64,000 nucleotides of DNA from an uncultured Chthoniobacter sp. (GTDB lineage Bacteria > Verrucomicrobiota > Verrucomicrobiia > Chthoniobacterales > JACTMZ01): positions 9,718 through 73,717 of the forward strand of contig CAZSUJ010000005.1 of the NCBI GenBank assembly GCA_964609925.1, given 5' to 3'. Position 1 is the stretch's first letter, and each line of letters starts with the position of its first letter. A program made the position numbers and the translations under genes. The notes beneath the pieces were generated by a model. It was not told the origin of the DNA, searched no databases, and saw only the letters and a list, made by a program, of their open reading frames with translations. Positions 28,893 to 50,444 of this stretch are shown one piece after another.

Positions 28893-28976
28893 ATTAGGTT
28901 GGTGAAGTCGAAGCAGGATCCGGAAACGGCTGCGGTGAACGCAAACGTTCGCCCGCAGCCGTCTGGACTCAGTGGG

Positions 28977-32400: not shown

Positions 32401-32607
32401 GATGGGAAAGGTGACTAGTCGCTCGATTTCCTCGGGAGCGAGGGCGGGCACGGCGGTATTCACCTGCACCTGAACATTGGTAATGTCGGGCACCGCGTCG
32501 ATGGAAAGGCGGAGGGCGGACCATATCCCGGCAACCACCAAGGCCAAGGTGGCGAGAAGCACCAGCACGCGCTGGCGCATAGAGAATTCGATGAGGCGTT
32601 CGAGCAT
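29419..32607 (-). CDS. czcA: heavy-metal efflux RND transporter, CzcA/CusA family
   Basis: MLERLIEFSMRQRVLVLLATLALVVAGIWS...IDAVPDITNVQVQVNT and 12-TM RND architecture. ATG at 32605-32607, 8 nt after the adaptor stop. Confidence 0.95.
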   Translation of the reverse strand: MLERLIEFSMRQRVLVLLATLALVVAGIWSALRLSIDAVPDITNVQVQVNTAVPALAPEEIERLVTFPIESAMAGLPRMVELRSLSKFGLSQVTMTFEDGTDIFRTRQLVMERLTNAREELPDGMAPQLAPISTGLGEIYYYVVGYADNAPNKPADPFEQLLELSLIQEYTIKPLLRNTRGLAEVNTSGGFEKQIVVAPDPTKLMSAGISFEELADVVRANSENVGGGLVEIGNEQIVIRSKTRVATTEEIARLPVRFAGGVRPILVGDVAAVSVGHAFRTGASTEDGEEAVLGAAIMLAGENSRLVAVAVRDRLEEIQTKLPPGIEIRDGYDRAVLVNKTIKTVEENLFHGAILVAVVLFAMLGNWRAALIVSLAIPLAFLFAITGMASSGLTANLMSLGAIDFGLIIDGAIVMVENIVRHLAEKQKELGRRLNARERSVEVLRSAKEVANPMFFGVLIITVVYIPILSLTGIEGKMFTPMAIAVMLCLLGALILALTLMPVLCSFFLGGNIAEKDNFLVHGCKAVYTPLLAFALRFRWAVVVAAILFFVSSIWVFTRLGAEFIPQLDEGSISIQMIRSTSVGLESSVELQKKSERILREQFPEITHLFARIGTAEIATDPMGPNVADTYVMLKPSSEWRKENGRPISKERLIALMQTALNENAPGQAFLFTQPIQMRFNEIMAGARADLALKIFGDDFQKLEELAMKARDILNAIPGGGDIEFEAMGRQPMIEVVPKRKALERYGIHGDEINRVVSYALGGEPSGQIIDGNRRYEIVVRLTEDLRRRVAGFSQLPLRVEGGGLITLGEVAEVKVIDEIGTIFRESNQRRVAILINLRGRDTEGYVGEATAKLREQLPLPPGYYFEFGGQFENLIKARERLMVVVPAALALIFALLFLSFGSLRQAALIFVCVPLAVTGGIFALWLRGMPFTISAGIGFIALSGIAVLNGIMLISFINQLRREGTGLRQAVIDGTLTRLRPKLMTALTTAIGFLPMAVATGAGAEVQRPLATVVIGGVLTSTFLTLILLPILYDWMEALAEKHRKTTINQTERTNTHEVLA

Positions 32608-32614
32608 AAGAATA

Positions 32615-33379
32615 TCAGTGGCCGTCGGAGCAGCCTTTACCACCGTTGACCGCTTGGAGTTCGATCATCCAAAGGTTTGACGCTCCGGCGGAGACGATTT
32701 CATCCCCTTCGAAGAGACCGTCCACGACCTCGATCCGGTCGCCTTGGCGGGAGCCAAGAACCACCGGGGTGCGGAGAAACGCCCCTCCGTTTGCGGCATA
32801 CACAAAACTTCCGCGCACGGACTCGACGACTGCGCTGGCCGGGATGATGGTGGCCTCACGCCGCCGTGCATCATCCTGACCCAATCGGGCTTGAAGAAAA
32901 TCCCCGACGCGGAGTTTAGCGTCCTGATCGCTCACGGTGAGGAGGACCTCGGAAGGTGCTCCGGCTTGGACGGCGGGTTTGACGGCGGCGACCGTGGCGG
33001 GAAACTCGCCCTGACCGCTTGAGAGATCGATGTGTTGACCGACCTTGAGAGCGGCCGCTTCGGCGGAGGGAACCCACAATGAAGCAGAGGCCGTCTTCTG
33101 ATCGGATGCCTCTGTGGCGGAGCGGTAGATTTGTGCGGCGATGCCGCTGCGCTCCGGGAGGATGCTGGCGGACTCGACCGGTGCCAAGCTGATGGCCGTA
33201 GCCTGCCGGGCAACCTCACTGAGGGTCAGGCCGCGACCTTCCTTAAAACTCCATGGCTCACTAGTGTGTCCCGCCTCAGGCCGCGATGCTGTGGCTTTGG
33301 AGGCTGTGCTGATGAGAATCACAGCGGTTGTTGCGGCGAGAAGGGTAAGACTGGCTGTAATGACGATGATTTTTTTCAT
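32615..33379 (-). CDS. short RND periplasmic adaptor (MFP) apparently lacking the alpha-hairpin
   Basis: MKKIIVITASLTLLAATTAVILI leader. Beta-barrel and membrane-proximal-like segments (EATIIPASAVVESVRGSFVYAANGGAFLRTPVVLGSRQGDRIEVVDGLFEGDEIVSAGA). It is only 254 aa and ends GGKGCSDGH. ATG at 33377-33379. Confidence 0.7.
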   Translation of the reverse strand: MKKIIVITASLTLLAATTAVILISTASKATASRPEAGHTSEPWSFKEGRGLTLSEVARQATAISLAPVESASILPERSGIAAQIYRSATEASDQKTASASLWVPSAEAAALKVGQHIDLSSGQGEFPATVAAVKPAVQAGAPSEVLLTVSDQDAKLRVGDFLQARLGQDDARRREATIIPASAVVESVRGSFVYAANGGAFLRTPVVLGSRQGDRIEVVDGLFEGDEIVSAGASNLWMIELQAVNGGKGCSDGH

Positions 33380-33464
33380 GGTTTTTTGCTGAATGAGATG
33401 TTGGATGGATTGGAGCGGAAGACAGGACCGGAGGCAGGTTGTGGCAGAAAGTTGAGGGCAAAAT

Positions 33465-34751
33465 TCATGGTTTGGCCTCTCTGGGCGAATCAAGTTTCCC
33501 CCCTGTTAAAAGATTCAAGTCCAGCAGAGTCCGCCAAGCGTCGAGCACGGCTTTCTGTGAGATCTGTAACGAGTTCAGATAGGCGGACTGAGTATCGAGG
33601 TAAAGCTGGGCACCGATGGAGCCGTTGCGGAATTGCGTGTCGGCCAGCGTCGAGGCTTCCTGAATGTTTTGCAAAAGCCCGGAGGGGATCATCCCCAACT
33701 GTCTTCTCGTCAACTCGTAGGCTTTCAGACGACTGAGGATTTGCGCCTCAGTCTCACGCTCGGCCTTGACTCGCAAGGCTTCTGCCATCGCGGATCGGGC
33801 TTTGGCGCCTTGAATGTTTCCGATGTTCCAATCCCAAATCGGCACACTGGCGGAGATTGCGCCACCGATATTCTGCTCGGTGTCGCCAGCCACATCGCGG
33901 CTGAAAAATGGCCCGATAGAGAAGTCGGGGGCGATGTCGAGCCGGGTGGAGGTAAGTTCGCGAGCGGAACGTTCCAATTCTTTCTGCCGAATTTTCAACA
34001 GAGGATTGTTGCTCTGCGCGGCAAAAATCATGGCCGTGTCGTCCAGTCTTTTGGTCGGGGGAGTAAGCGATGCCGAGATACGAAGCGGCAGGTTTTGCGG
34101 TCTCCCAAGTAGTGAATTGAGCTGGGCGCGGGTTTCCTCCCGACGCAGGGAAGCGTCTTTGATCGCCTCCCCAAGCTCAATCAGGCTAGCTTGGACAAGC
34201 CGGATTTCAATTTGCAGCCGTGCTCCGAAATTCGCCTGCGAGTTCAACTGCGAGGCGAGTTCATTGCTCTGTTTGTAAACGGCCTCGGCTGCCTGCGCCT
34301 CGGCCACTGCAGCAAGGTGCTCATAAGCGAGCACCCGGATTTGCCCGGCCAGAGAAAGGCGAAACTGCTCAAGGCCCAGTTCGGCAATTTCGATGTTCTT
34401 ATTCGCGATGGCCTTGCGAAGCGTTCCCTTGCCTGGAAACTCGAACGTCTGCATTACGGACACGCTGAGGGTCGTTCCGTTGCCTTGGAGGATATTTTCC
34501 GAGTCTCGGACTTCGCGTCCGCCGAATTCAAAGGAGACCTCCGGGTTTTTGAAGAATCCGGCTTGGGTGCGTTGCCCCCTCGCCGCCGCCACTTCGGCCT
34601 CAAAGGATTTCAGTTCGGCGTTGTTTGCCAATGCCATGGACACAAGGGCGTCGATGGAATTGGGAGACACCGAGGTTGGTGTTTCTTGCGCGAAAAGGGC
34701 ACTGCCTACTATGAGGCCAAGGCAGCACGCGATTAATTGTTTTCGATACAT
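33465..34751 (-). CDS. czcC: TolC-family outer-membrane efflux protein (CzcC-like)
   Basis: 428 aa with a signal peptide. ALANNAELKSFEAEVAAARGQRTQAGFFKNPEVSFEFG, and two helix/strand repeats typical of OMFs. Confidence 0.85.
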   Translation of the reverse strand: MYRKQLIACCLGLIVGSALFAQETPTSVSPNSIDALVSMALANNAELKSFEAEVAAARGQRTQAGFFKNPEVSFEFGGREVRDSENILQGNGTTLSVSVMQTFEFPGKGTLRKAIANKNIEIAELGLEQFRLSLAGQIRVLAYEHLAAVAEAQAAEAVYKQSNELASQLNSQANFGARLQIEIRLVQASLIELGEAIKDASLRREETRAQLNSLLGRPQNLPLRISASLTPPTKRLDDTAMIFAAQSNNPLLKIRQKELERSARELTSTRLDIAPDFSIGPFFSRDVAGDTEQNIGGAISASVPIWDWNIGNIQGAKARSAMAEALRVKAERETEAQILSRLKAYELTRRQLGMIPSGLLQNIQEASTLADTQFRNGSIGAQLYLDTQSAYLNSLQISQKAVLDAWRTLLDLNLLTGGKLDSPREAKP

Positions 34752-34800
34752 AGTGATTTTGGAATCGCCTCATATTGCAGGCGGATGATGATCGAGCGGT

Positions 34801-35256
34801 TCAAGAATTCCCCTCGCTATGGGAACTACTGTGGTAGGTGACCCGAATTTTTACCGCCTGCCGTGCTTGGCTCAAAGGGAAGCTGACGACATATGAATCG
34901 GTGAAACGCTTGCCACCTCCAGGAGCAGAATCCGTCGGATTGATGTCATCCTGGTCTTCTGCAATCACGTTTCCAGAAGGCCCTATCAACTGAATGTCCA
35001 CATGGGCACTGTTGCTCAGCTTATGTTTTCTCGCAGAACCAGCGACATAAAGCCGGTCAGAAGTCTCATGCGCTCGAAAACTCAGGACTTGGCACTCTCC
35101 AGAATGTTGGACTTCAATCGGAAACGGAGAGTCAGCCAGCTTGAACCAAGTGTCCAGTGAGGTGCAAGCGGCGAGCGACATCATTCCGATGACGATGGTG
35201 GCGGCAGGAAAGCCAGAGAATTCATTTGAGAAAAAAGCAGTGAAAGAGAGTTTCAT
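34801..35256 (-). CDS. hypothetical lipoprotein/secreted protein (151 aa)
   Basis: ATG at 35254-35256 with AGGA 9 nt upstream. Hydrophobic leader ending ...MMSLAAC (lipobox-like). Lower-GC DNA (about 50% at 34801-34860). No family recognised. Confidence 0.45.
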   Translation of the reverse strand: MKLSFTAFFSNEFSGFPAATIVIGMMSLAACTSLDTWFKLADSPFPIEVQHSGECQVLSFRAHETSDRLYVAGSARKHKLSNSAHVDIQLIGPSGNVIAEDQDDINPTDSAPGGGKRFTDSYVVSFPLSQARQAVKIRVTYHSSSHSEGNS

Positions 35257-35390
35257 TTTGAGTGTCCTGATTGAGTCGCCCAACGAATGTCATCAGCGCG
35301 ACGAAGTCATTTTGTTCGGGATTGACCCGGTGGATGCGGGCGAACGGCCCGACTAGACGCGAATCGAGGGCGCACCGCGCCTACGATTCG

Positions 35391-35738
35391 TCAGGACAAC
35401 TGAGGAGGATAGTCGATCTCCGATACAGGAGAGTCGGGAACGAAGAACTTTAGAGAAAAATACGCCTCGGGGTATTTGTCTGACAGCACCACAAAAGTCT
35501 GCGCCTCGGAAATTGAAATGAGTTTATGGCAGCCAAGATGCTTACAACCGCCTGATTCGTCCGCGTCAGGAGATTGGTCGGATTGGCCTGACGATGCGTC
35601 GTCACAACTTTGACGGGCCTCGTGGATGCACGAGAGCAGGTTGGCATTCTCCGCAAAGCATACAACCGACTGTCCGACGGTAGCAGCAAGGAGTAGAGCC
35701 AGAAGAAATTTGCTCAAAATCGAGATGGAACGATGCAC
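35391..35738 (-). CDS. small secreted Cys/His-containing protein (115 aa), possibly CzcI-like
   Basis: Signal peptide MHRSISILSKFLLALLLAATVG. Cys/His clusters CFAEN...SCIHEARQSC and GGCKHLGCHK. It is the first gene upstream of czcC. The family call is tentative. Confidence 0.4.
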   Translation of the reverse strand: MHRSISILSKFLLALLLAATVGQSVVCFAENANLLSCIHEARQSCDDASSGQSDQSPDADESGGCKHLGCHKLISISEAQTFVVLSDKYPEAYFSLKFFVPDSPVSEIDYPPQLS

Positions 35739-35923
35739 CCTACAAACACGATACCCCCACGATGTTCGCTGTCAATTAAAAGTAGATTCCAAGAAGATCC
35801 CCGCCTGCCAAGCTGGCTTAGGTGTCATTTACTCTTGAGGCAACAGGCCGCGCGCCGGGACCAGTTGATCCAACCCCTGCGACTGGACACAACGGAATGT
35901 GAGTCTGCGGGTAGGTTTGTTGT

Positions 35924-36298
35924 TTAGTGGTTGATGGGAACAAGGCCAGCGCGAACTGGAGCGCAGGCCGTAGGCCGGAGCGGAAGTTCGCGCTGCGCGG
36001 CCACCGACGGGGGGCGGTTGCCCAGGCTGCCGTGCGGCCGCTTGAAGTTGTATTCGTAGGCGTAGTTGCTGACGGCCGCGTTGACCTCCCGGAGGTTCAG
36101 GAAGAGCTCGCGATCCAGCAACTCCGCCCGCACCTGCGCGTGGAAGCTCTCCACATGGGCGTTCTCCCACGGCGAGCCCGGCTCGATGTAGCGCGGCCCG
36201 ATCTGTGCCGCTTCCAGCCACTTCTGCACCGACTTGGCCACGAACTCCGGCCCGTTGTCGCTGCGCAGGTATTGCGGCTTGCGGCCGCTGCACACCAT
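35924..36298 (-). pseudogene. 3' fragment of an IS3-family transposase (rve integrase core, second Asp and Glu only)
   Basis: RKPQYLRSDNGPEFVAKSVQKWLEAAQIGPRYIEPGSPWENAHVESFHAQVRAELLDRE...YNFKRPHGSLG. Upstream of about 36298 the same frame is only the antisense of the neighbouring IS fragment. Confidence 0.7.
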
Positions 36299-36964
36299 GA
36301 CCTCTTCCCAAGGTGTCGATGAGCCGCGTCCGCCGCAGGAGGAACCGGGCAAAAAAGAGCAGGTCAACTTTACCGATCCGGAGAGTCGGTTCATGAAAAC
36401 GACCAACGACTTCCAGCAAGGCAACAACGCGCAGGCGGTGGTGGAGGTCGAGAGTCGCCTGGTGGTCGGGCGGCAGGTCACCGATGCACCCAACGACAAA
36501 GAGCAACTCGCCCCGACTTTTGCGGCCATCGAGCCGGTGGCCGGGGCCGTGCGGCAAGTTCTGGTGGACAGCGGATTTGTGAGCGAGCAGGCCGTGGGGG
36601 AGATGGAGAAAGGGGGCACGGTGCAAGTGCTGGCCGCCGTCAAACGCGAGAAGCACCGGAGGCGGGTCGAGCAGTTGGAAAAGAAAGCCGATCCGCCGGA
36701 TCCCGGCCGGCAAGCGCCCTTCACCGAACGCATGGCCCGCCGGGTGGCGACCAAAGCGGGGCGCGAGCGCTACACACTACGACAACAAACCGTCGAACCC
36801 GTCTCCGGCATCATCAAGGAGGCACTGGGCCTCAGGAGGCACTGGGCTTCCGCCGGTTCTCCCTGCGCGGGTTGGCCAAAGCCAAGACCGAATGGACGCT
36901 GGTGACCCGGGCCTACAACCTCAAGCGACTCTTCCACATGAAAGTGCGGCTGCAAACCGCCTGA
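36299..36964 (+). pseudogene. 5'-truncated, frameshifted IS1182/IS5-superfamily DDE transposase fragment
   Basis: VNFTDPESRFMKTTNDFQQGNNAQAVVEVESRLVVGRQVTDAPNDKEQL...VLVDSGFVSEQ...YTLRQQTVEPVSGIIKEALG. After a 17-nt duplication the conserved tail FRRFSLRGLAKAKTEWTLVTRAYNLKRLFHM continues in another frame, ending with a stop at 36962-36964. Confidence 0.65.
36818..36851 (+). repeat. 17-nt imperfect tandem duplication (GGAGGCACTGGGCCTCA / GGAGGCACTGGGCTTCC) that frameshifts the IS1182-like gene
   Basis: Read directly; 15/17 identical. 17 is not a multiple of 3. Confidence 0.8.
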
Positions 36965-37196
36965 TCGGCCCGGGAGCCAAGCCATTTTCCTCAACCAGCA
37001 CGCTGACCGAGCCCCCAAGATCCATCCCCGACGCCATCTGCAGAAATCGCCCGGCCGGAAATTTGGAAAAATCCTACGGCTCCTGAACCCAGCGTTTCCT
37101 CAAGTCCGACAGGCTGCTACCATATGCCCTCTACCTGTGGCGGTGACCTGAGGGTCGCCGATATGCGACCATCCGACCTGCCCACCATCCCGACCA

Positions 37197-40151
37197 ATGC
37201 CACACCTGAGTTGGAACGAAGTTCGCGAGCGCGCCATCCGCTTCTCCCGCGAGCATTCGGGCGACCGGTCGGAGAGCGCTGACAAGCAGACGTTCTGGAA
37301 CGACTTCTTCAACGTCTTCGGCCTTCGCCGTGCCTCCCTCGCCTCGTTCGAGGCCAACGTCCGCAATCTCCATGGCAACACCGGGGCGATTGACCTCCTC
37401 TGGAAAGGCCGCCTGCTCGTCGAGCACAAGAGCTTCGGCCAGGACCTCGGCCTCGCGGAGACCCAGGCCTTCACCTACATCGAGGACCTTACCCGCGAGC
37501 AGCGCTGGGACGAGATCCCGCGCTTCGTCCTCATCTCCGACTTCGCCCGCTTCGTCCTCTATGACCTCGAGCCCGAGGAACAGCGGGACCTTCCTCTCTT
37601 CGCGGGCCGCCAGGTCCAGCCGCACCACTTCACCCTCGCCGAGTTTCCGCGCCATGTCCGGCACTTTGCCTTCATGCTCGGGCAGACGCGTGTGCGCCTC
37701 GACCCCGAGGACCCGGCCAATGAAAAAGCCTACGCCCGCATGTGCGAGCTGCACGACGCGCTCAAGACCGGAGGCTTCACCGGCCACGAACTCGAACGCC
37801 TCCTCGTCCGCATCCTCTTCTGCATGTTTGCCGAGGACACCGCCATCTTCGCGCCAGACGCCTTCACGCAGTTCATCCGCACCCAGACGCGCGCCGACGG
37901 AACGGACTGCGGCGCCAAGCTCAACGAACTTTTCGACTGGCTGAACAACCCCGCGGCCGACGGCCCGCTGGCCGACACCGACCCATTCGCCGGTTTCCGC
38001 TACGTCAATGGCGGCCTCTTCGCCGAGCGCCTCGGCTTCCCGCGCTTCACCCGCGCCATGCGCGACGCACTGCTCTACTGCTGCGATTTCCAATGGGCGC
38101 GCATCTCCCCCGCCGTCTTCGGCTCTCTCTTCCAAGGAGTCATGGAAGACCGCGCCCGCCGCCAACAGGGCGCGCACTACACCAGCGAGCGCGACATCAT
38201 GAAAGTGCTCCGCTCCCTCTTCCTGGACGACCTCCGCGCCGAGTGGGACCGCGTGAAAGCCGACCGCTCGACCCGGCGCGCCACCGGCCTCGAAGGCTTC
38301 CACCAAAAGCTCCGCTCCCTCCAATTCCTCGACCCCGCCTGCGGTTGCGGCAACTTCCTCGTCCTTGCCTACCGCGAACTCCGCGCGCTCGAAATCGACG
38401 TCGTCCGCGAGCTCGCCGCCGGCACCGGAGGTCAGCAACTTCTCCCCATCGTCAACGTGGATCAGTTCCACGGCATCGAATACTCCGAATGGCCCGTCCG
38501 CATCGCCGAGGTCGCCCTCTGGCTCATGGACCACCAGATGAACAACACCGCGAGCGAGGTTTTCGGGCAGCCCGTTGACCGCCTCCCGCTCACCTCCTCG
38601 CCGCACATCGTCCACGGCAATGCCCTGCGCTTGGATTGGAACACCATCGTCCCCCGCGAGCGGTGCAGCTTCGTCATGGGGAATCCGCCTTTTGTGGGCA
38701 AGCACTACCAGAACGACGAGCAGCGCGCCGACATGCGGGCGGTGTTCGGCGAATCCACCACCACGGGCGACCTCGACTACGTGACCTGCTGGTATGTGCA
38801 AGCCGCGCGCTACAGCGCCGGAACCCGCATTCCTGGTGCCTTTGTCTCAACCAACTCCATCACGCAAGGCGAGCAGGTTCCGGCTCTCTGGAGCGTTCTC
38901 TTCCGCCGGCATCATCTCAAAATCCACTTCGCCCACCGCACCTTCGCTTGGCAGAGCGAAGCACGAGGGCGAGCCCACGTCCACGTCGTCATCATCGGAT
39001 TCGGGGCTTTCGATGTGTCGCGCAAGCTCATCACCGATTACGAAGGCGATCCGGACAATCCACTCGTTGTTGCCGTAGACAATATCTCTCCCTACCTCAC
39101 CCCGGGCTCCGACTCTTTTGTCACGAAACACCGGCAACCACTCTGTGCGGTTCCGACGATGCGCTGCGGGAACAAGCCGACCGACGGCGGCCACTTCATT
39201 TTCACCGATTCTGAGCGCGAAGAATTCCTCCGCTCCGAGCCGGGTGCGGCCAAATTCTTCCGCCGCTTCACCGGCTCCGAGGAGTTTATCAACGGCAACA
39301 TGCGGTGGTGCCTGTGGCTGCGGGACGCCGCACCCCATGAATTGCGGAGTTTGCCTCGCGTCATGGAACGAGTCGAACTCGTCAGAAACATGCGCGCCAG
39401 CAGCACGGCGCGACCAACTAGAGAGGCAGCAGCGAAGCCAACCCAGTTCTTTTACGAGTCACAGCCTGACACTGACTACATCCTGATCCCCGAAGTTTCC
39501 TCTGAGCGTCGCAGCTATATTCCGATGGGCTTCATGCTCAGCGAGGTCATCTCCGCAAACACGAATTTCCTTATTCCTTCGTCTGATTATTACCTCTTTG
39601 GGGTGCTAACATCGTCGATGCACATGGCGTGGATGCGGACCGTTGGGGGACGACTAGAGTCGCGCTACCGCTATTCCGGCAGCATGGTTTACAACACCTT
39701 TCCCTGGCCTTTCACTCAAAGGAGCGCGGGCGTCCCGCCCGCATCGTCACAAAGCGGGCAGGATGCCCACGCTCCTGTCAGCGGCACCTCGGAAGCCTCC
39801 CTGCGGGCCAAAGTCGAAGCCTGCGCCCAAGCCGTCCTTGCCGCGCGCGAACCGCACCTTCCGCCCCGCGGACTCTCGAACCTGGCCGACCTCTACGATC
39901 CGCTGACCATGCCCGCCGAGTTGGCCAAGGCACATGCGGCCTTGGACCGCGCCGTGGAGAAATGTTACCGGCCCGAGCCGTTCCATTCCGACCGCGAGCG
40001 GGTCGAGTTTTTGTTCCGTCTCTACGAACAACTCACCGCCCCGCTCCTCCCCGCCAGCCCGGTCTACCCCGCCAAACGCCCCCGCGGCTCCGCCGCGAAC
40101 CCCTCGCGCCCTCGCCGCAGCCGCACGCCCGGCCTGCCCGAGGCGTCCTGA
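37197..40151 (+). CDS. MmeI-family type IIL restriction-modification enzyme (fused PD-ExK nuclease, gamma-class N6-adenine methyltransferase and target-recognition domain)
   Basis: 984 aa. N-terminal SWNEVRERAIRFS...FWNDFFNVFG...GAIDLLWKGRLLVEHKSFG (D-x9-E-x-K). SAM motif FLDPACGCGNFLV. Catalytic NPPF in FVMGNPPFVGK. Family-typical STNSITQGEQV, GNKPTDGGHFIF, QPDTDYILIPEVSSERRSYIP, GGRLESRYRYS and LADLYDPLTMP. Confidence 0.9.
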   Translation: MPHLSWNEVRERAIRFSREHSGDRSESADKQTFWNDFFNVFGLRRASLASFEANVRNLHGNTGAIDLLWKGRLLVEHKSFGQDLGLAETQAFTYIEDLTREQRWDEIPRFVLISDFARFVLYDLEPEEQRDLPLFAGRQVQPHHFTLAEFPRHVRHFAFMLGQTRVRLDPEDPANEKAYARMCELHDALKTGGFTGHELERLLVRILFCMFAEDTAIFAPDAFTQFIRTQTRADGTDCGAKLNELFDWLNNPAADGPLADTDPFAGFRYVNGGLFAERLGFPRFTRAMRDALLYCCDFQWARISPAVFGSLFQGVMEDRARRQQGAHYTSERDIMKVLRSLFLDDLRAEWDRVKADRSTRRATGLEGFHQKLRSLQFLDPACGCGNFLVLAYRELRALEIDVVRELAAGTGGQQLLPIVNVDQFHGIEYSEWPVRIAEVALWLMDHQMNNTASEVFGQPVDRLPLTSSPHIVHGNALRLDWNTIVPRERCSFVMGNPPFVGKHYQNDEQRADMRAVFGESTTTGDLDYVTCWYVQAARYSAGTRIPGAFVSTNSITQGEQVPALWSVLFRRHHLKIHFAHRTFAWQSEARGRAHVHVVIIGFGAFDVSRKLITDYEGDPDNPLVVAVDNISPYLTPGSDSFVTKHRQPLCAVPTMRCGNKPTDGGHFIFTDSEREEFLRSEPGAAKFFRRFTGSEEFINGNMRWCLWLRDAAPHELRSLPRVMERVELVRNMRASSTARPTREAAAKPTQFFYESQPDTDYILIPEVSSERRSYIPMGFMLSEVISANTNFLIPSSDYYLFGVLTSSMHMAWMRTVGGRLESRYRYSGSMVYNTFPWPFTQRSAGVPPASSQSGQDAHAPVSGTSEASLRAKVEACAQAVLAAREPHLPPRGLSNLADLYDPLTMPAELAKAHAALDRAVEKCYRPEPFHSDRERVEFLFRLYEQLTAPLLPASPVYPAKRPRGSAANPSRPRRSRTPGLPEAS
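39726..39770 (+). repeat. twin GC-rich hairpins (GCGGGCG-TCC-CGCCCGC and GCGGGCA-GGA-TGCCCAC) inside the MmeI-like coding sequence
   Basis: Read directly at 39726-39742 (perfect 7-bp stem) and 39754-39770 (6/7). They translate in frame as ...SAGVPPASSQSGQDAHAP... Confidence 0.6.
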
Positions 40152-40156
40152 AACGT

Positions 40157-40389
40157 CTTTGTGCCGGCGTGCACAGCCTTTGTGCACGCGAGCACACGCC
40201 TTGTGCCACCCCGCACAGAGCTTGTTCCTGCCTGCACCAGCGTTGTGCCAGCGCGCACAGACCTTGTTCCCACGGGAACAGCCTTTGTGCCAGCGCGCAC
40301 AAGCCTTGTTCCTGCAGGAACAGGCTTTGTTCCCGCGCGCACACCTTCTGTTCCTGCGTGCACAAAGCCTGTTCCCGCGTGCACGGGGG
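40157..40389. repeat. 11 tandem 21-bp units, each with a 16-bp dyad TGT[G/T]C-N6-G[C/A]ACA
   Basis: Left arms start at 40160, 40181, 40202, 40223, 40244, 40265, 40286, 40307, 40328, 40349 and 40370, an exact 21-bp register. Arms are conserved while the N6 spacers vary. All six frames are open across the array. Confidence 0.9.
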
Positions 40390-40618
40390 CCGGCAAGCCG
40401 GTGAGGACACCGGCTCTACAGAAGAGACCATGTCTTCGCTTCGCCCTCGTGCCGATGGCAAGTCGGCCGACGGAGCGGCGGCTTCAGCCGCCGCCGATTC
40501 CCGCGCGGCAAAGCCGCCAAACCTACTCCTCCGGCCGGTCTCCAAACCCGAGGGTTTTCGGTCATCGGCCGGATAAAGGTCGGGTCATGATGTGCTTTAT
40601 CGGGGAAACTCCTGCTCC

Positions 40619-41989
40619 ATGACTGACGCCCAACCGCACCCGGCCCGCATGACGCAGGTCTATGCGTCGCTGCTTTCCCTGGCCGCTCCGATGCTGCTGG
40701 GGCAGGCCGGGCAGGTGCTGTTGCAACTCACCGACACGATCATGGTGGGCCGCGTCGGGCCCGTCCCGCTGGCCGGGGCGGCGCTGGCGGGGAATCTCGT
40801 GATGTTCGCGCTGTATTTCGCCTATGGCTCGCTCGGGGCCGTGGCGCCGACCATCGGCCAGGCCTTCGGCGCCAAGGATTACGGCACCCTGCGCACCGTG
40901 GCCCGGGCATCCGTCCGACTCGCCTTGGCGGTGGGAACCTTCATTGCCGTGGCGCTCACGACGCTCGTGCCATTCCTCGGCCACATGGGACAGCCGCCCG
41001 AAGTCGTAGCCATCACGGGTGGTTATCTCGCGCTCCTCGCTTGGTCCATGCCAGCCGCAATGCTATGCCTCGTCCTCGGCCAGACTGCCGAGGCGGTCAA
41101 CCGTCCGTGGCCGGTCATGATCATCATGGCCGGGGCGGTGGCGTTGAATGCCGGACTGAACTTTGTCCTGATCTTCGGGCATCTGGGCTTTCCGGCGCTC
41201 GGGCTCGAGGGCGCAGGCTGGGCGACATTCATCTCGCGCTTGGTGCAAGCGGCGGTGCTCCTGGCTTGGATCCGGCGGGACCGCGTTTTTCTCGCCCTAA
41301 AGGAATGGCGCGAGACGGGGAGCGTGGCGGCGACCTTCCGCACCCTTCTCCGCGAGGGATTGCCGGTGGCGGGGCAGGATGTGCTGGAGGGAGGATCCTT
41401 CGCGGTGGGCAGCCTGATGCTCGGCTGGCTCGGCACGACCGCCCTGGCCGCGAACCAAGTCACGATCAGCATCGCCTCGCTGGCGTGGATGTTTCCCATC
41501 GCACTTTCGACGGCAGCGAGTGTCCGAGTGGCGCAGGCCGCGGGGGCCGGGGATCTGGCCGGGGCGCGCCGCGTGGGGCTGGCGGCAGTTGTCCTCGGGG
41601 TCGGCATCATGGGCGCCTGTGCCGCCGTTTACATAACCAGCGGTCATTTCCTCGCGGGGCTGTTCACCTCCGACCCAGCGGTGGTCGCTTTGGCCGGCCA
41701 GCTCGTAACCATCGCGGGCATCTACCAAATCTCCGATGCCATCCAGTCGGTGAGCCTCGGGTCATTGCGCGGGCTGCTCGACAACCGCGTGCCGCTGGTG
41801 GCCAATGCCGTCTGCTACTGGCTGCTCAGCCTCCCGACGGTCTACCTCCTCACCTTCGTGCTCGACTGGGGTGCCTTGGGCGTGTGGATCGGCTATCTCC
41901 CCTGGATGATGCTCACGGGGGTTTTCTTCCTTTGGAGGTTCCTGCGGCGGACGCGGGAACACCCGGTTTCCGCGCAGACGTGCGGGTGA
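40619..41989 (+). CDS. MATE-family efflux transporter
   Basis: MTDAQPHPARMTQVYASLLSLAAPMLLGQAGQVLLQLTDTIMVGRVG, 12 TM helices and internal duplication typical of NorM/DinF-type MATE proteins. ATG at 40619. Confidence 0.9.
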   Translation: MTDAQPHPARMTQVYASLLSLAAPMLLGQAGQVLLQLTDTIMVGRVGPVPLAGAALAGNLVMFALYFAYGSLGAVAPTIGQAFGAKDYGTLRTVARASVRLALAVGTFIAVALTTLVPFLGHMGQPPEVVAITGGYLALLAWSMPAAMLCLVLGQTAEAVNRPWPVMIIMAGAVALNAGLNFVLIFGHLGFPALGLEGAGWATFISRLVQAAVLLAWIRRDRVFLALKEWRETGSVAATFRTLLREGLPVAGQDVLEGGSFAVGSLMLGWLGTTALAANQVTISIASLAWMFPIALSTAASVRVAQAAGAGDLAGARRVGLAAVVLGVGIMGACAAVYITSGHFLAGLFTSDPAVVALAGQLVTIAGIYQISDAIQSVSLGSLRGLLDNRVPLVANAVCYWLLSLPTVYLLTFVLDWGALGVWIGYLPWMMLTGVFFLWRFLRRTREHPVSAQTCG

Positions 41990-41995: not shown

Positions 41996-44900
41996 TCAGG
42001 GGCGCCGACGGCGACGCAGGGCAAAGCCGGCCGCAACGGCGGCGGTCAGGGCGAGGAGGGCCGTGGTCGAGGGTTCGGGGACTGCGGTGACGAGGAGTTT
42101 GAAGGAGTCGTTCTCGACTTCCTGACTCACGACAACACCGGGCGCGAGTCCGCTGAGGTAGACATTCGCGAAGGTGAAGCTATTGGTGAATCCCGAGGCC
42201 GCGGGACCGATCATGGTGAAGACGTCGCCGACGTTCGCGTTGTAATTCGTGAAGGAAAAGTAGGCGTCCCCCGCGAATGATCCATGACCGACCCCGGCGA
42301 AAAAGATCACGTCCTGGTTCCCGACGCCGAAGATGTCCATGTAGAGCTCACCCGTCACGGTCTGCTCGTAGGCCCCGAGGAAGGTCGCGCTCGCGGCGTA
42401 ACGAAAGTCGGTGCCGATGGTCGTCGTGCCGGCATCCTGCATGATGGCGTTGTTGGTCCCCTGGGTGAGGAACGACGCGCCGGAGGTGTTGGTGAAGGCT
42501 CCCTGGTTGCTGTTGGTGCTTCCCGAGAGCCAGAGCGTCCCGGACACGACCCCGAAGTTCGTGACCCGCAGGTTGTTGCCGCCGGAGTAATAGACGGCCG
42601 ACTGCCCGGCGCCGGTGCCAACCACTGTGCCGCCAGCGTTGACCACGAGGGAATTCGACAGTCCACCATCCACCCAGACCCCACGGCCAGCGTTGCCGGA
42701 GCCGCCGTAGACCTTGCCGCTCACGCTGAGGTCCACCCGACCGAAGCCGTGCGTGCCCGCGGTGACATTCTGCGCGAAAACTCCCACCGAGTTGGTTCCT
42801 TCGGCAGTGATCTGCGAGGTGGCCTCGACGTTGATCTGGATGTTTCCGTTGCCTCCGCCCGAGCTGGTTCCCGAACTACCCGCCCCGCCGGTCGATCCCG
42901 CGAAGGCGCCGGTCAATCCGCCGCCGCCCCCGATGGACTGTGCGAGAATACCGACGGCGCCATTGCCGATGACATTGATGTCGGCCGCGTTGGTGATCGT
43001 GATGTTTCCGCCGTAACCAAGCGAAGCCCCGGGATTGAGCGCGGGCGCGTTCGTGGTCAGACCACCGGACGCCGAGGGATTCGCGATGCCGCCACCGCCG
43101 CCGATGGATTGCGCCACCAAGCCGTGCGAGCCCGCGCCCGTGGTGACGATCGAGGCATTGGAGGCGAAGGCGGCGTTGATGGCACCGCCGGCGAAGTATT
43201 GCGTGTCGCTGCTGTTCCCGCCCGACGCACCGAGCGTGACCGTTCCCGTGGTCTGACGCGTGGTGACCAAGCCACCACCGCCGCCGATGGACTGGAGGAC
43301 GACGCCGAATGCATTCGCGCCGGAAGTCTCAATGGTGTTGGTGCTCGCAACGTTGATCGCGCCGCCCACCCCGCCGCCTTTGCTGGTGCCGCCGAGTTGG
43401 ATGTTCGGCGCGGGGTTGGTCACGCCGGACATGGTCTCGCTGCTGCCGGAGCCGGCGAGTCCGCCGCCGGCGCCGATGGACTGCAGCAACACGCCGTGGG
43501 CCGACTCACCCACCGTGCCGAGGGTGGCCGAACCGGTGAAACCAATGTTCCCCGCGGAGCCCTTGGCGTCCGGCATGCTGCCGAGACGGATCGTTCCCGT
43601 TGCAGCCTTCGAGGCATCCGTGGCCATGCCGCCGCCTCCTCCGATGGATTGCGCGAGCACTCCGTAGGCCGCGTAGCCGCTGGTGTTCGTTCCGGTGGAA
43701 ATCGTGCCGCCCACTTGCAGCGTCACCGGACCGGCATTGCCCTGGCCGTTGGTCGCCCCGACCTGCACATCGAGGTCGGCGATGGCGGGCCCGCTCGTTC
43801 CGAAAATGGTCGAGGCCTTGCCGCCGCCGGCGCCGATGGATTGCGCGACCAGGCCGTGCGACCAATCGCCCAGCGTGGTGGTCGTCGAGGAAAGGTTCTG
43901 CGTGATCGTCACCGCGCCGCCGTTCATCGCGTCGCTGCCGCTGAGGTTGATGCCCAGCGAGACGTCCGCACGCAGCGGCAGCACACCCACACTGATCGCG
44001 GGCGCGAGGAGCGGCTTGCCGCCCGCGGAGGCCACGCCACCGCCGCCGGCCACCGACTGTGCGAGCACCCCGACGGCATCCGCCTCGGCGGTCGTGACCT
44101 GGCCACCTTGCAAGACGGCCACGGTTCCTCCCGCCGCCGCATCGGTGCCCGACGTGGTGCGGTTGACCCCGATGCCCAAACCGAGCGTGGTGTTGGCGTC
44201 CGCGGTGCCGTCGGCCCCGACGCCGCCGCCGCCGGCGATGGACTGGGCGAGAATGCCGTTGGCGCCGTAGCCCGCGGTGCCGACCACGGAAAGATTCGAG
44301 ACCGTGACGGCGCCGCCGGAACTGGAATCGCCTCCCCTCCCGCCCACCGCCACATCGATCGAGAAAAATCCGGTCGGGTCCATCAGGCTGAAGAATCCGG
44401 GGTTGGCTCCGCTGGTGGCCGAACCGCCGAGACCGCCACCACCACTCACCGACTGTGCGAGGACGCCGTGGGCGCGGCCGCCGTCGGTGGAGATGTTGCC
44501 TGTGTTTTCAACCAACGCCGCGCCGCCTCCCCCGCCCGATCCGCCGGTGCCTCCCACCGAAACATCACTGCTATAGCCCCTCGAGGAGAAGATCTCGGAC
44601 GGGATCGAACCCGTTTCGAGGCTCGCGTTGGCGTCGGCGGTGCCGCCCTTGCCGCCCCCGCCGCCGATGGATTGCGCAGTGATGCCATTCGCGTCACCTC
44701 CCAACGTGGTGATGGTCCCGGCGTTGGCGACCGTGACGGAATATCCGGAGGCGTTGGTGATGTCCGCCGAACCACCGCTGCCGCCAGTCCGTCCGATGGT
44801 CACGCTGGCCGAGTAGCTGTTGTTGCCGCCCGCGGCACTCCCGCCGCCGGCCGCCCCGCCGCCACCGCCAACGGCCTGGGCAAGGATGCCGTGCGAATCC

Positions 44901-47827
44901 GAGCCTGCAGTCGAGATCGAGCCCTGGTTGGTCACGACGGTCGGGCCGGCGTTGCCACCGCCGCCGCTCTGTCCACCGATGGCAAGGGTGAGGATGATGT
45001 TGGTGTTTCCCGAGTCTGACCCACTCGAGACGTTGGCCTTGGCATTGCCCACGCCGCCGCTCCCGCCGCCGCCGCCGATCGATTGGGCGAGGATGCCATG
45101 GGAGGATTGCGCGTGGGTGGTGATGGACGAGGTCGCGCCGGAGTTGGTCGCGTTGACAAACGAGACCTCGCCGCCGCGTCCGCCGCCACCGCCCTGACCG
45201 CCGAGTCCGAGGGTGAGCGAACCGGTGGTGGAGTCCTTGGCGAAGATCGCGTTGACCGCGGTCGAGTCGCCACCGTGTCCGCCGCCGCCGCCAATCGATT
45301 GCATCAAGGCGCCGTGCGAGCCGTCGCTGTAGGTCTGGATGCTGCCGTTGTTCTGCGCCGTGATGACGCCGCCGGCGGAGGCGGCTCCGCCGCTGCCACC
45401 GATGACGAAATTGGCCACTCCGGCGAAGGGCACTCCCTCGGATTCGCCGCTGACCGCCACCCCCTTGCCCACAGCGGAGCCGGCCTGACCGCCGCCGCCG
45501 CCGATGGATTGCGCGAGGATGCCGTGGGAGTCCGCACCATCCTGATTCATGAAACCATTGGTCGCGCCCGGCACGCCGGTCGTGATGACGCTGCCCGTGT
45601 CCAAAGTGACATTGACCGCTCCGCCGCCCCCGCCGCCGTTCCCGCCGCCGCCGAGGGCCAGGTTGATGTCGATCAAGGCCGAGGCCGAATACGAAAGCGC
45701 GTTGCCGCCGGTGCCGCCGCCACCGCCGAGCGATTGCAGGATCACGCCGGCCGAATTGTTGCCCGAGGTGGTGATGGCGCCGTCCTGGTCCAGAAACACG
45801 GAACCGCCCGCACCCCCCGTCGCGCCTTTCCCGCCGATGCCCAGATCGACAAGGAATCCGGCGGCATGGGAACCGCCGCCGTGGCCACCACCGCCGCCGA
45901 TGGACTGTGCGATGATGCCGGCTGAGTGGTCGGACTCCGTTGTGATCGAACCGCCGGCCGCGACCGAGACTACACCTCCCGCGCCACCCGATCCGCCCTG
46001 GCCGCCCACCGAGACGAAGAGGCCCACCGCATTGCCGCCGTTGCCGCCGCCGCCGCCGATGGACTGCGCGAGAATTCCGACCGAGTTCGTGTCCTTGGTC
46101 GTGACTTGGGAATCCGTGGAAGTGTTCACATCGACCTCACCTCCCGCTCCGCCCTGGCCGCCTTTGTCGCCGACGAACAATGCGGGATGCTTGCCGCCCG
46201 CATTTCCCCCGGCGCCGCCGATGGACTGCGCAATGATGGCTGGTGACGCGGTGCCAGTGCCGGCCCCGTCACCCGTCGTGACGCTGCCCACATGAATCAC
46301 CGAGACGGTGGCCCCGGGGCTGGCCGAACCGCCGGAAGATGACGAGTTGTTGCCCACGACGAGGCCGTTGGTCGAGTTCGTGTTGCCGCCGGCGGCAAGG
46401 ATGTTGTTGATCAACCCGCCGCCGCCCGAGCTCAACGCCACGATGCCGTAGGCGCTTGCCCCGACCGTGGTGATCGTGCCCGCATTGCTGATCGTGACTG
46501 CAGCGCCGACTCCGTCCGTCTCGCCGCCCGAGTTGCCGAGGTAGGATTCCTCGTCACCGTTGTTCGATGTGGCCACCGCGGCGCCACCGAGGCTGAGCCC
46601 CGCGAGCCCGACGGAGAGCGTGCCCTCCGTCGCGATATTGGCGGTGTTTGTCACCGTGACGGACGAGGCGCTGCCGAAGCCGGTGCCGTTGACCGTCTGC
46701 GAGCTGAATGGATTGAGGAGCAGGTCGGTGCCGGCGCTGACGGCGAGGATACCGGCCGAGAAGACCGAGTTCGAGTTGCCGGTGGCGATGAGCGCACCCT
46801 CGCTGACCACCTTCACGTTGCCCGCTTGGACCGTCGAGTCCTTCTTCGGGTCGTTGGCCACGTAAACCTGACTGGCCGCGAAGACCCCGACTCCGGTGTC
46901 ACCCGTCGCGCGGATGATCGTGCCGGTTTTGAGGCCGACTCCGACATCATTGCCGAAGGCGGTGTTGGTCGGGCCGCCGTCGATGAATTGCGCCCCCGTC
47001 GCCGTGGCCATGATGCCAACGCCGGAGACTGCCGAGTTGCTGATTGATCCGCTGGCGAGCAACACGCCCACCGGCGCGGCGATGTTCGTCCCGTAGGTGC
47101 CCCCCGGCCCCGTCGCCGTCGCCGCCGAAATGCCCGCGCTCACGATGTCCTTGTTCGGATTCGAGACGATGATCGGACCGTTGGCTGATTCCACCGAGAC
47201 CGGGCCGCCCGCGTAGGTGACGCTGCTGTTGGTCCCCTGGAAACCGAAAGACGCCGCCGAGATGCCGCTCATCGCCGCCATGCGGAAGGCCAACGGGTAA
47301 AGCGGCGTCGAGGCCAGGTAGTTTCCGTCGCCCTCGACCACGATGCTGCCGAGATTCAACACCACGACCTCCGAGCCTTGGCGGTAAGTCTGGCTGTTTG
47401 CCGAACTGCCGCCCGGCAACCCGAGGGCGACGATGGCCCCGTTGCCCACCTCGCCGGTCTGCGCGCCGGGCGCCTGACGGAAGATGAGGTTGCCCTCGTT
47501 GACCACGGTCACCGTTCCGCTCTGGTTCGAGTAACCGAGAACGAACCCCGAGCCCGGAAAACCGTTCGTGTAAGCGTAAAGGCCGAAGGGATTCGTCGCC
47601 ACGAGCCCGTAGCTCTCCGTTTGCCCGGGATAAAAACCGACCCCCACCGAGACCGGCAGCACGCTATTGTTCGTCGTCACCGCGGTGATCTGGTTGGAGC
47701 CGACGGTGACGCTGACATCACCGGTGGTCGTGATGTTGGTCGAGATGTCGGCCATGCCGGGCTGAACCAGCCATGCGACCACCGCACAGAGAGCAAACAG
47801 TCGCGAAATGGTAGGTGCGCGGTTCAT
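41996..47827 (-). CDS. giant (about 1943 aa) glycine-rich repeat protein with PEP-CTERM anchor
   Basis: Signal peptide MNRAPTISRLFALCAVVAWLVQPGMA (ATG 47825-47827). About 18 copies of a module centred on G[IV]LAQS[IV]GGGGG...GG.GG.V.V.N.G.I.T.G..S.G. C-terminus VPEPSTTALLALTAAVAAGFALRRRRRP. Confidence 0.85.
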   Translation of the reverse strand: MNRAPTISRLFALCAVVAWLVQPGMADISTNITTTGDVSVTVGSNQITAVTTNNSVLPVSVGVGFYPGQTESYGLVATNPFGLYAYTNGFPGSGFVLGYSNQSGTVTVVNEGNLIFRQAPGAQTGEVGNGAIVALGLPGGSSANSQTYRQGSEVVVLNLGSIVVEGDGNYLASTPLYPLAFRMAAMSGISAASFGFQGTNSSVTYAGGPVSVESANGPIIVSNPNKDIVSAGISAATATGPGGTYGTNIAAPVGVLLASGSISNSAVSGVGIMATATGAQFIDGGPTNTAFGNDVGVGLKTGTIIRATGDTGVGVFAASQVYVANDPKKDSTVQAGNVKVVSEGALIATGNSNSVFSAGILAVSAGTDLLLNPFSSQTVNGTGFGSASSVTVTNTANIATEGTLSVGLAGLSLGGAAVATSNNGDEESYLGNSGGETDGVGAAVTISNAGTITTVGASAYGIVALSSGGGGLINNILAAGGNTNSTNGLVVGNNSSSSGGSASPGATVSVIHVGSVTTGDGAGTGTASPAIIAQSIGGAGGNAGGKHPALFVGDKGGQGGAGGEVDVNTSTDSQVTTKDTNSVGILAQSIGGGGGNGGNAVGLFVSVGGQGGSGGAGGVVSVAAGGSITTESDHSAGIIAQSIGGGGGHGGGSHAAGFLVDLGIGGKGATGGAGGSVFLDQDGAITTSGNNSAGVILQSLGGGGGTGGNALSYSASALIDINLALGGGGNGGGGGGAVNVTLDTGSVITTGVPGATNGFMNQDGADSHGILAQSIGGGGGQAGSAVGKGVAVSGESEGVPFAGVANFVIGGSGGAASAGGVITAQNNGSIQTYSDGSHGALMQSIGGGGGHGGDSTAVNAIFAKDSTTGSLTLGLGGQGGGGGRGGEVSFVNATNSGATSSITTHAQSSHGILAQSIGGGGGSGGVGNAKANVSSGSDSGNTNIILTLAIGGQSGGGGNAGPTVVTNQGSISTAGSDSHGILAQAVGGGGGAAGGGSAAGGNNSYSASVTIGRTGGSGGSADITNASGYSVTVANAGTITTLGGDANGITAQSIGGGGGKGGTADANASLETGSIPSEIFSSRGYSSDVSVGGTGGSGGGGGAALVENTGNISTDGGRAHGVLAQSVSGGGGLGGSATSGANPGFFSLMDPTGFFSIDVAVGGRGGDSSSGGAVTVSNLSVVGTAGYGANGILAQSIAGGGGVGADGTADANTTLGLGIGVNRTTSGTDAAAGGTVAVLQGGQVTTAEADAVGVLAQSVAGGGGVASAGGKPLLAPAISVGVLPLRADVSLGINLSGSDAMNGGAVTITQNLSSTTTTLGDWSHGLVAQSIGAGGGKASTIFGTSGPAIADLDVQVGATNGQGNAGPVTLQVGGTISTGTNTSGYAAYGVLAQSIGGGGGMATDASKAATGTIRLGSMPDAKGSAGNIGFTGSATLGTVGESAHGVLLQSIGAGGGLAGSGSSETMSGVTNPAPNIQLGGTSKGGGVGGAINVASTNTIETSGANAFGVVLQSIGGGGGLVTTRQTTGTVTLGASGGNSSDTQYFAGGAINAAFASNASIVTTGAGSHGLVAQSIGGGGGIANPSASGGLTTNAPALNPGASLGYGGNITITNAADINVIGNGAVGILAQSIGGGGGLTGAFAGSTGGAGSSGTSSGGGNGNIQINVEATSQITAEGTNSVGVFAQNVTAGTHGFGRVDLSVSGKVYGGSGNAGRGVWVDGGLSNSLVVNAGGTVVGTGAGQSAVYYSGGNNLRVTNFGVVSGTLWLSGSTNSNQGAFTNTSGASFLTQGTNNAIMQDAGTTTIGTDFRYAASATFLGAYEQTVTGELYMDIFGVGNQDVIFFAGVGHGSFAGDAYFSFTNYNANVGDVFTMIGPAASGFTNSFTFANVYLSGLAPGVVVSQEVENDSFKLLVTAVPEPSTTALLALTAAVAAGFALRRRRRP

Positions 47828-47950
47828 CGGTGGCCGCCCCCCGGACCTGCCCATCGCCTGCGGTCGCCGAGGCTTGATACGCAGGGCCGGAGAGCCTTGG
47901 GACATTGGAACCGCCGAAGCAACGGGTCAAGCGCGGACCCCTCCCCGCGG

Positions 47951-48731: not shown

Positions 48732-49145
48732 CTACCGCGTCAGGAGCCGGTTGAATCCGGCCCGTTCGAAATGCTCGTCATGGGTGAAGGCGTCCTTGAG
48801 GCGGAGTTCGCGCATGACGACGAAGCTGGTGACATCGGTGAATGAGTATTGTTGGTCGCGGTGCTTGAGGAAGTAGTCGCGAGCTTGGGCAAAACGATCC
48901 GGTCCGATCCCGGCCACCGTGAGGGCCGCAGACTGGTCCAGCATGCCGAAAAACGCATCAAGCGCCCGGGTGGCCCCGCGCACCATGAGCAACGTGGCGG
49001 TTTCATCAACCACGTAGTCGGTGGTCACAAGCGGCGTCTTCTTCCGGGCCAGTCGCGAGAGCAAGCCCCGGGCTGCCTCGTGCCAAGAATCCCGGCGATC
49101 GAACAGGCTATACCAGCCCATCGTGTCCACGAACACCGGCTTCAC
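48732..49145 (-). CDS. vapC: PIN-domain toxin (VapC-like)
   Basis: MKPVFVDTMGWYSLFD, TTDYVVDETATLL and SFTDVTSFVVMRELRLKDAFTHDEHF. The four acidic positions follow the PIN pattern. Confidence 0.8.
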   Translation of the reverse strand: MKPVFVDTMGWYSLFDRRDSWHEAARGLLSRLARKKTPLVTTDYVVDETATLLMVRGATRALDAFFGMLDQSAALTVAGIGPDRFAQARDYFLKHRDQQYSFTDVTSFVVMRELRLKDAFTHDEHFERAGFNRLLTR

Positions 49146-50303: not shown

Positions 50304-50409
50304 GCCGTGGCCGGAACCTCGAGGCTCGGTGCGGCGGTCGGAGACGACGACCCTCCAGAGTTCGCTCTGCTTGAGGGCGAGCGGCGCGGCGCTCACGCGC
50401 AACCGCCCA

Positions 50410-50436: not shown

Positions 50437-50444
50437 TTTCCAGC

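Follow-up and report, generated by a model that had tools for sequence, protein, structure and literature searches.

Repeated sites that are read by dimeric proteins are well described from the partition loci of plasmids. The sopC site of F comprises 12 repeats of 43 bp, each with a 16-bp inverted repeat, parC of pSK41 is built of 20-bp repeats, and a parC site is also found on R1; in sopC and parC a dimeric protein reads the dyads and a cooperative nucleoprotein complex is formed. Iterons are another group of such repeats, with 7 units of 22 bp in R6K, 17-mers at 22-bp spacing in RK2 and 4 units of 22 bp in pPS10. Here we analysed an array of 11 dyad-symmetric units of 21 bp, which is located at positions 40160 to 40390 (no strand assigned) of a 64-kb stretch of DNA from an uncultured Chthoniobacter sp. 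(contig CAZSUJ010000005.1); the whole stretch is referred to as the window. The array is non-coding, it is part of a genomic island, its arms are constrained, and it is one of a family of arrays that vary in copy number. From the arm constraint and the geometry we infer that the array is probably bound by a protein, and we tentatively favour the reading that it is a cooperative protein-binding platform acting at the DNA level, with one half-site per helical turn and a minisatellite-like mode of evolution.

In function, the array appears closest to sopC/parC or to iterons. Like sopC and parC, it consists of about ten head-to-tail, indel-free and helically phased repeats, each containing a short dyad. 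It differs from them in that neither a partition ATPase gene nor a gene for a centromere-binding protein lies nearby, that no plasmid matches it, that its family is chromosomal, intergenic and spread over several phyla, and that its 21-bp unit provides a half-site at every turn. Iterons share with the array a period of about two helical turns, the exact tandem phase and the combination of a conserved core with variable positions, but they are direct repeats that have no internal dyad, and they are accompanied by a rep gene, an AT-rich region and DnaA boxes.

In genomic behaviour, the array looks closest to repetitive extragenic palindromic (REP) sequences and bacterial interspersed mosaic elements (BIMEs), to Neisseria intergenic mosaic elements (NIMEs) and to mycobacterial interspersed repetitive units (MIRUs). 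REP/BIME and dRS3/NIME elements (the dRS3 repeat of Neisseria is the 20-bp ATTCCC-N8-GGGAAT) are likewise short imperfect intergenic palindromes with alternating arms and strain-variable copy number, enriched near variable genes and insertion sequence (IS) elements. REP units, however, are longer and are true hairpins with compensatory changes and a RAYT transposase as partner, whereas the array has an exact 21-bp phase and a low apparent copy number per genome. An assignment to the REP/BIME type was rejected, as the stem is not maintained and there is one array in 64 kb. MIRU-type loci, which belong to the variable number of tandem repeats (VNTR) class, resemble the array in their intergenic position, strain-variable copy number, same-orientation flanking genes and open frames, but MIRUs measure 46-100 bp, are lineage-specific and lack dyad half-sites, whereas the array family crosses phyla and is under position-specific constraint. 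The array fails the defining tests of the compared families with the exception of the generic description 'VNTR', which fits an intergenic tandem repeat whose orthologous loci differ in unit number.

Anatomy of the 21-bp array

The left arms of the units start at 40160 + 21k (k = 0 to 10) with no indel, as a preliminary description of this DNA had stated, and Tandem Repeats Finder returned a period of 21 with 9.9 copies, the periods of 42 and 84 scoring higher. Each unit is made up of the left arm TGT(G/T)C, a 6-bp spacer of the form C-N-G-C-G-N, the right arm G(C/A)ACA and a 5-bp linker close to RGCCT, and all 11 units fit TGT[GT]C-N6-G[CA]AC. Eleven exactly phased sites cannot have arisen by chance. 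Five units (1, 2, 3, 5 and 7) read TGTGC..GCACA and two (6 and 8) read TGTTC..GAACA; unit 8 (TGTTCCTGCAGGAACA) is a perfect 16-bp palindrome. Units 7 and 8 (40286 to 40327, no strand assigned) constitute, together with units 5 and 6, a 42-bp higher-order repeat. These assignments, and the hybrid nature of units 9, 10 and 11, are the same as described before, but unit 4 (TGTTC..GCACC), which had not been listed, is a hybrid too. The covariation of the arms that two self-consistent variants imply is not significant: the bases at unit positions 4 and 13 are G and C in 5 units, T and A in 2, T and C in 4, and G and A in none (one-sided hypergeometric probability 15/55), and these positions are complementary in just 34% of 205 units of the family described below.

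The arms are conserved beyond the rest of the unit. No deviation was found at the seven fixed positions of the arms (0/77), compared with 46/132 at the remaining positions (Fisher p = 2.6e-11), which upholds the earlier claim in this respect. The spacer is not as free as had been supposed: in the numbering of the unit, positions 6, 8, 9 and 10 are C, G, C and G in 10/11, 9/11, 11/11 and 8/11 units, respectively, which leaves 7 and 11 as the only hypervariable ones. Constraint falls on a half-site of 4-5 bp, (G)T(G/T)C, whose copies alternate in orientation; their centres are spaced by 11 and 10 bp, and two-fold axes recur every 10.5 bp. There is one half-site per helical turn and all of them lie on one face of the helix, which is the geometry expected of a dimeric protein binding side by side. 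This geometry fits the view, put forward earlier, of a DNA element that is read by a protein.

Outside the array, the dyad pattern has no further match on either strand of the 64-kb window, where chance alone would give about 2 with equal base frequencies; therefore, the window gives no sign of a dispersed regulon. Four runs of one gut-metagenome study contain the array without any difference in sequence, and a run of a sediment study yielded a 151-nt contig, covering 40147-40297, that is identical to the corresponding part. Since it recurs unchanged in these runs, the array is not an assembly artefact; it is invariant across the five runs carrying it. All four gut runs also contain a second array locus, with near-identical units, another flank and lower depth.

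A family of related arrays

We scanned metagenome and viral contigs with a three-unit pattern at the 21-bp period, in which the linker was not demanded. At least 120 metagenome contigs and 4 viral contigs matched, the chance expectation being far below 1, and many of these matches are unrelated, near-identical 21-bp repeats. Among the matches listed, about 25 contigs (about 20 independent loci) share the linker AGRCCT. The unit of this family is TGTKC-N6-GMACA-RRCCT, present in 4-19 copies with a unit-to-unit identity of 0.6-0.9; its consensus is TGTTC-GCGCCC-GCACA-GRCCT, and the canonical unit is asymmetric (TGTTC..GCACA). All of the arrays are intergenic and lie between long open reading frames (ORFs), for the most part in DNA of variable or defence islands, and their orientation relative to the adjacent genes is mixed.

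The contigs range from 40 to 66% in GC content and carry genes of Verrucomicrobiota, Bacteroidota and Chloroflexota, the last by the label of a metagenome-assembled genome (MAG). For the group of locus L218, the proteins are labelled Limnocylindrales in an NCBI MAG. Locus L155 (40% GC), a member of Bacteroidota by its flanking gene, has AT-rich spacers and keeps the GACCT linker; in L156 and L241, on the other hand, the linker is the AT-rich AAAAG and the GC-rich spacer is kept. These two low-GC arrays (L156, 940-1107; L241, 353-520) have the unit TGTTC-GCGCTC-GAACA followed by AAAAG, and their spacer occurs in both orientations, GCGCTC and its exact reverse complement GAGCGC, inside one array, which amounts to a core flipped relative to the linker. 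Judged from these sequences, the arms appear to be the common denominator of the family, and the other positions seem to follow the base composition of the host.

Copy number differs among orthologous loci, with 7, 9, 10 and 11 units in L153, L154, L202 and L213, respectively; variability of this kind had been named beforehand as a point to be checked. Units at the edges of the arrays are degenerate, and adjacent ones are often identical to each other. Between the near-identical orthologous arrays L143 and L218 there are few differences, spread alike over arms, spacers and linkers, and the diverged arrays, those of the window and L218 (unit identity 0.6-0.7), retain the arms.

The genes beside the arrays are diverse. 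In L236 the array comes after a distant MmeI/Eco57I-like gene, which is followed by an IS256-like transposase remnant, L218 adjoins an N4-cytosine methyltransferase gene, and further neighbours are a PIN gene, a group II intron reverse transcriptase gene and a 23S-IVS four-helix-bundle gene. Ordinary neighbours are found as well, namely genes for polysaccharide synthases, a prepilin-type gene and a MarR gene. In L236 (2177-2260 and 2700-2990) the array abuts the last approximately 30 codons of the IS256-like transposase (..AKWKMPPVFWKSALNQFAI), and after it there are at least 3 copies of a tandem repeat of about 110 bp (GACGGTAGGGCCGCGCTGCCGCGCGGCC...).

Nothing relevant was found in the literature searched on 21-bp repeats in Verrucomicrobia or on repeats linked to MmeI. 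The array family is uncatalogued: neither Rfam nor that literature gave a description of it, and neither did the collections of plasmids and phages. A scan of genome contigs at a period of 22 bp, which excludes the window array, gave matches (L001-L120) containing no array of the family. It did reveal a 5-unit array with a 22-bp period and dyads of this type in Synechococcus sp. 8F6 (L006, 3208-3311) and paired TGTKC-N6-GMACA dyads with 21-22-bp spacing in Sphingobacterium spp. (L011, L016, L024, L051 and L062); in several of the Sphingobacterium genomes two such pairs lie within a stretch of about 300 bp. These dyads may be genuine regulator sites.

The island and its neighbouring genes

The array stands at the right end of a strain-specific segment of 12.9 kb (27661 to 40590, no strand assigned), which contains an RND efflux operon, an AT-rich stretch, fragments of rve and DDE_Tnp_1 transposases, an MmeI-type gene and the array. 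The AT-rich stretch (34700-35830), flanked by the RND operon on one side and the IS fragments on the other, holds ORFs of 160 aa and 115 aa with low GC at third codon positions and no Pfam match, and looks like foreign DNA of a different origin within the island. The closest relative found, L246, lacks the whole segment, including the array, and has at its position 730 bp with a gene for a 185-aa lipoprotein. L246 is otherwise collinear with the window except for two segments: 21137-25447, which encodes a radical-SAM and an FG-GAP protein and is replaced in L246 by an AraC-type gene, and 41996-47905, where a gene for a 1969-aa PEP-CTERM protein has been inserted after the MATE gene. Target-site duplications were sought at the island junctions and none was found. 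Between the array and the right junction there are 200 bp of island DNA (40391 to 40590, no strand assigned), in which a GC-rich stretch of about 50 bp (40467-40518; GACGGAGCGGCGGCTTCAGCCGCCGCC...) matches several other contigs from the same metagenomes at about 85% identity. Since its copies lie on other contigs and the window has no second one, this stretch is regarded as a separate dispersed intergenic element.

The left neighbour is an MmeI-family type IIL restriction-modification gene (37197 to 40151, + strand), whose TGA stop codon (40149-40151) is followed after 8 bp by the array. About a hundred MmeI homologues share an ending with an arginine-rich ..RTPGLP.. tail; because this conserved C-terminal tail is present in the window gene, its stop is genuine. 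In this clade (the window enzyme and its homologues P0122-P0240), the shared tail reads ..LLPATP..R.RR....PRPRR.RTPGLP.. and extends beyond MmeI_C; MmeI itself has no such tail. The residues equivalent to K645, Y738, E751, N773, E806, R808 and R810 are conserved, which predicts a TCCRAC-like recognition site. CCRAC does not occur in the array (count 0), and the idea that the units are target sites of the enzyme was rejected. A link of the array to the MmeI-type gene, suggested by the neighbours of L236 and L218, was rejected likewise, as the predicted site is absent and no array lies downstream of the three closest homologues (77, 77 and 73% identical). The only link retained is that arrays and MmeI-type genes both favour defence islands.

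The right neighbour is a MATE efflux gene of the core genome (40619 to 41989, + strand), whose homologues bear Terrimicrobiaceae labels, which assigns the window to the Verrucomicrobia, and whose product is 95% identical to that of L246. Homology with L246 restarts only at 40591, just 28 bp 5' of the MATE ATG; the promoter of the MATE gene in the window strain must therefore lie in island DNA. No array was found upstream of the MATE orthologues at 95, 76 and 74% identity, nor in approximately 130 kb of related loci. Since it is absent both from these loci and from those of the MmeI homologues, we concluded that the array is cargo of the island and is bound to neither neighbour. The boundaries of both flanking genes agree with the preliminary description, and so does its view that neither gene is the partner of the array.

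Elsewhere in the window, 177-bp tandem coding repeats (24141-25037; 4-5 copies, 73-78% identity) lie within the gene of the FG-GAP-repeat protein (23299-25365, - strand; 688 aa). A PIN-domain gene (48732-49145, - strand) and a Phd/YefM antitoxin gene (50307-50687, + strand) are about 1.2 kb apart, and it is not obvious that they are a cognate pair.

Proposed protein binding and its alternatives

In the reading that we favour, a sequence-specific dimeric DNA-binding protein, encoded elsewhere, would bind side by side along the array, its site being either the N6-centred or the N5-centred dyad, and binding would lead to a cooperative nucleoprotein filament. The array would grow and shrink by replication slippage or unequal recombination in the fashion of a minisatellite. 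Insulation or silencing at the island junction, partition-type clustering and titration are candidate roles of the bound array. Several observations weigh against this reading. No DNA-binding gene was found in the island by Pfam, and there are no single dyad sites in the rest of the 64 kb. The spacer flips within the L156 array indicate some role for intrastrand pairing. Protection of the arms cannot be seen on short time scales, judging from L143 and L218; the conservation of the arms within the family is partly imposed by the search pattern; and the membership of the window array in the family is based on a fairly loose similarity of the linker.

The main rival is a neutral or selfish minisatellite without cellular function, in which a short palindromic unit would expand through slippage at transient hairpins; copying would favour units with intact arms, and the arms would thus be kept by molecular drive and not by protein recognition. 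The variation in copy number between strains, the degenerate edges, the often identical neighbouring units, the higher-order periods of 42 and 84 bp and the lack of an array in the closest relative are all in line with it. The two orientations of the L156/L241 spacer are what hairpin-mediated flips predict, and the even spread of the differences between L143 and L218 agrees with it as well. However, the canonical unit is a poor hairpin: positions 4 and 13 are mismatched in 65% of the units and positions 1 and 16 often, which leaves 3-4 pairs. As pairing at these positions is not maintained, a hairpin constraint on the arms is disfavoured. Moreover, the half-site and the linker persist over 40-66% GC and across phyla, with spacers or linkers drifting with the host, and even the old diverged arrays keep their arms. 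We consider a purely neutral origin possible but rather unlikely.

It is improbable that the array is a centromere-like site of the sopC/parC type or an iteron block, left behind or still used by an integrated plasmid or mobile element, an idea of the preliminary description that our results weaken. Tandem, helically phased protein-binding repeats of 20-22 bp are typical of type I and type II partition sites and of iterons, as in F (sopC), pSK41 (parC), R6K and RK2, the array lies in an IS-scarred island, and the family is often found in mobile or defence contexts. But Pfam searches detected no ParA, ParB, ParR or Rep gene in the window or the island, and no AT-rich unwinding region or cluster of DnaA boxes lies beside the array, the flanks of which are GC-rich. 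By blastn, four arrays of the family had no match among 72,556 plasmids and the window array had none among 50,697 phages, and many arrays of the family lie between ordinary chromosomal genes. The units match chromosomal parS at no more than 10/15 positions.

It is very doubtful that a regulator of the MATE pump, be it of the CRP/FNR superfamily or another dimeric helix-turn-helix (HTH) protein, uses the array as an operator or is titrated by it as a decoy, as had also been suggested. The 5-6-5 geometry and the TGTG-N8-CACA core are those of the CRP/FNR site (TGTGA-N6-TCACA), the units match 6-8 of the 10 positions of the CRP consensus, and the MATE gene has had its own upstream sequence replaced by the island, so that its expression in the window strain depends on island DNA. 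On the other side, the MATE orthologues have no array and the related arrays flank unrelated genes. Position 5 is always C instead of A, and the canonical family unit is asymmetric. No sigma-70-like promoter was predicted over 39600-40900, and no CRP/FNR-family domain was found among the scanned window ORFs of at least 90 aa. Known CRP/FNR sites, moreover, come as one to three before a promoter, whereas the arrays have 11-19 abutting sites. The reading as a CRP/FNR operator is not supported.

The same difference in number applies to the NifA-type upstream activator sequence (UAS; TGT-N10-ACA), which is bound by bacterial enhancer-binding proteins and which shares with the units the dyad geometry and the outer TGT...ACA. 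In such systems a sigma-54 promoter lies 80-250 bp downstream. No match to TGGCAC-N5-TTGCW with up to 2 mismatches was found on the + strand of 40390-40620, and the arrays have no conserved gene association; the enhancer was rejected. The LexA motif of Verrucomicrobia is reportedly TGTTC-N4-GAACA. TGTKC-N4-GMACA does not occur in the window, the spacing in the array being N6 or N5.

A LytTR-type array, another of the earlier suggestions, was also rejected. LytTR sites are 9-bp direct repeats 12-13 bp apart, and the 21-bp register of the array is compatible with this spacing; the consensus [TA][AC][CA]GTTN[AG][TG], however, has no match on either strand of 40141-40400. It had been stated that the window contains no ParB, Rep or HTH gene; this is correct for the partition and replication genes, but a LytTR response regulator is encoded at 7302-8075 (- strand; Pfam), 32 kb from the array, next to its partner, a LytS-type histidine kinase (8106-9149, - strand). 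The consensus search and a comparison with the regulator's own intergenic region, which bears no resemblance to the array arms, gave no link between the regulator and the array. The LytS/LytTR pair is divergent from a gene (9264-12638, + strand) for an 1124-aa LPMO10-CBM2-Calx-GH9 cellulase, and the region between them contains the inverted repeat TTGAAAAC/GTTTTCAA. The pair is probably a two-component switch for cellulose degradation.

An RNA-level element transcribed with the MmeI-type or the MATE gene, whether a block of hairpins that stabilise the 3' end or terminate weakly or a repetitive RNA acting as regulator or antitoxin, is just as poor a candidate as the MATE operator. The array begins right behind the MmeI-type stop codon, both neighbours are on one strand, and units 7 and 8 obtained weak terminator-like hairpin scores on the + strand and are followed by CUUUGU. 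The folding z-scores of -6.2 and -4.6 are trivial because dyads produce them, and the predicted fold is a single long fold-back instead of 11 hairpins. The arms do not covary, the orientation of the arrays is mixed, and an Rfam search of the array gave matches all far below the gathering scores. In four peat metatranscriptomes the contig depth over the L154 array is about 0, whereas depths in the hundreds to thousands are recorded for a prepilin-type gene whose transcript begins approximately 370 bp downstream; the L154 array is thus not the source of an abundant RNA. This prepilin-type (N_methyl) gene (L154, 4066-4543) is among the top transcripts of several peat and permafrost metatranscriptomes, with depth up to about 10,000, and has many paralogous variants there. 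The L218 organism was sought in the peat RNA runs, which do not contain it.

A coding heptad repeat, either a small ORF such as 40161-40622 (VPxxTxL), which ends in ATGA overlapping the MATE start, or a pseudogene fragment, can practically be dismissed, and so can an MmeI-type gene that extends into the array at its C-terminus or by read-through: the three forward and two reverse open frames are not surprising at 65% GC, each of the six frames is stopped in several family arrays, sometimes in every unit, no frame is open in all of them, the arrays are intergenic, none of the ORFs spanning the window array matches a Pfam family, and the MmeI homologues end in ..RTPGLP.., none of them with heptads. 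The array is non-coding, as had been proposed.

A broader version of the protein-binding platform would regard the arrays as cis-sites of an undescribed, horizontally mobile DNA-protein system common to Verrucomicrobiota, Bacteroidota and other phyla, which we consider unlikely though worth stating. In one possible form of such a system, a filament-forming DNA-binding protein would mark, silence, insulate or cluster defence and variable islands or promote their exchange, and it would be loaded at the arrays, each of which offers one half-site per turn of the helix.

Should the arrays indeed be read by a protein, they would represent a new pair of cis-element and regulator that is found across phyla and concentrated in variable and defence islands, and the interest of the family would rise sharply once the cognate protein is found. 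With its 5-bp half-sites at every turn, the site is unusually clear-cut and simple to synthesise, and could serve as a direct bait for the partner. If the array is only a minisatellite, it would still be a useful strain marker. It also serves as a caution that tandem repeats of high GC content give rise to spurious ORFs. For the annotation of the locus, it matters that in the window strain the sequence originally upstream of the MATE pump gene has given way to the island, so that expression of the pump depends on read-through or on signals in the island DNA, the array included.

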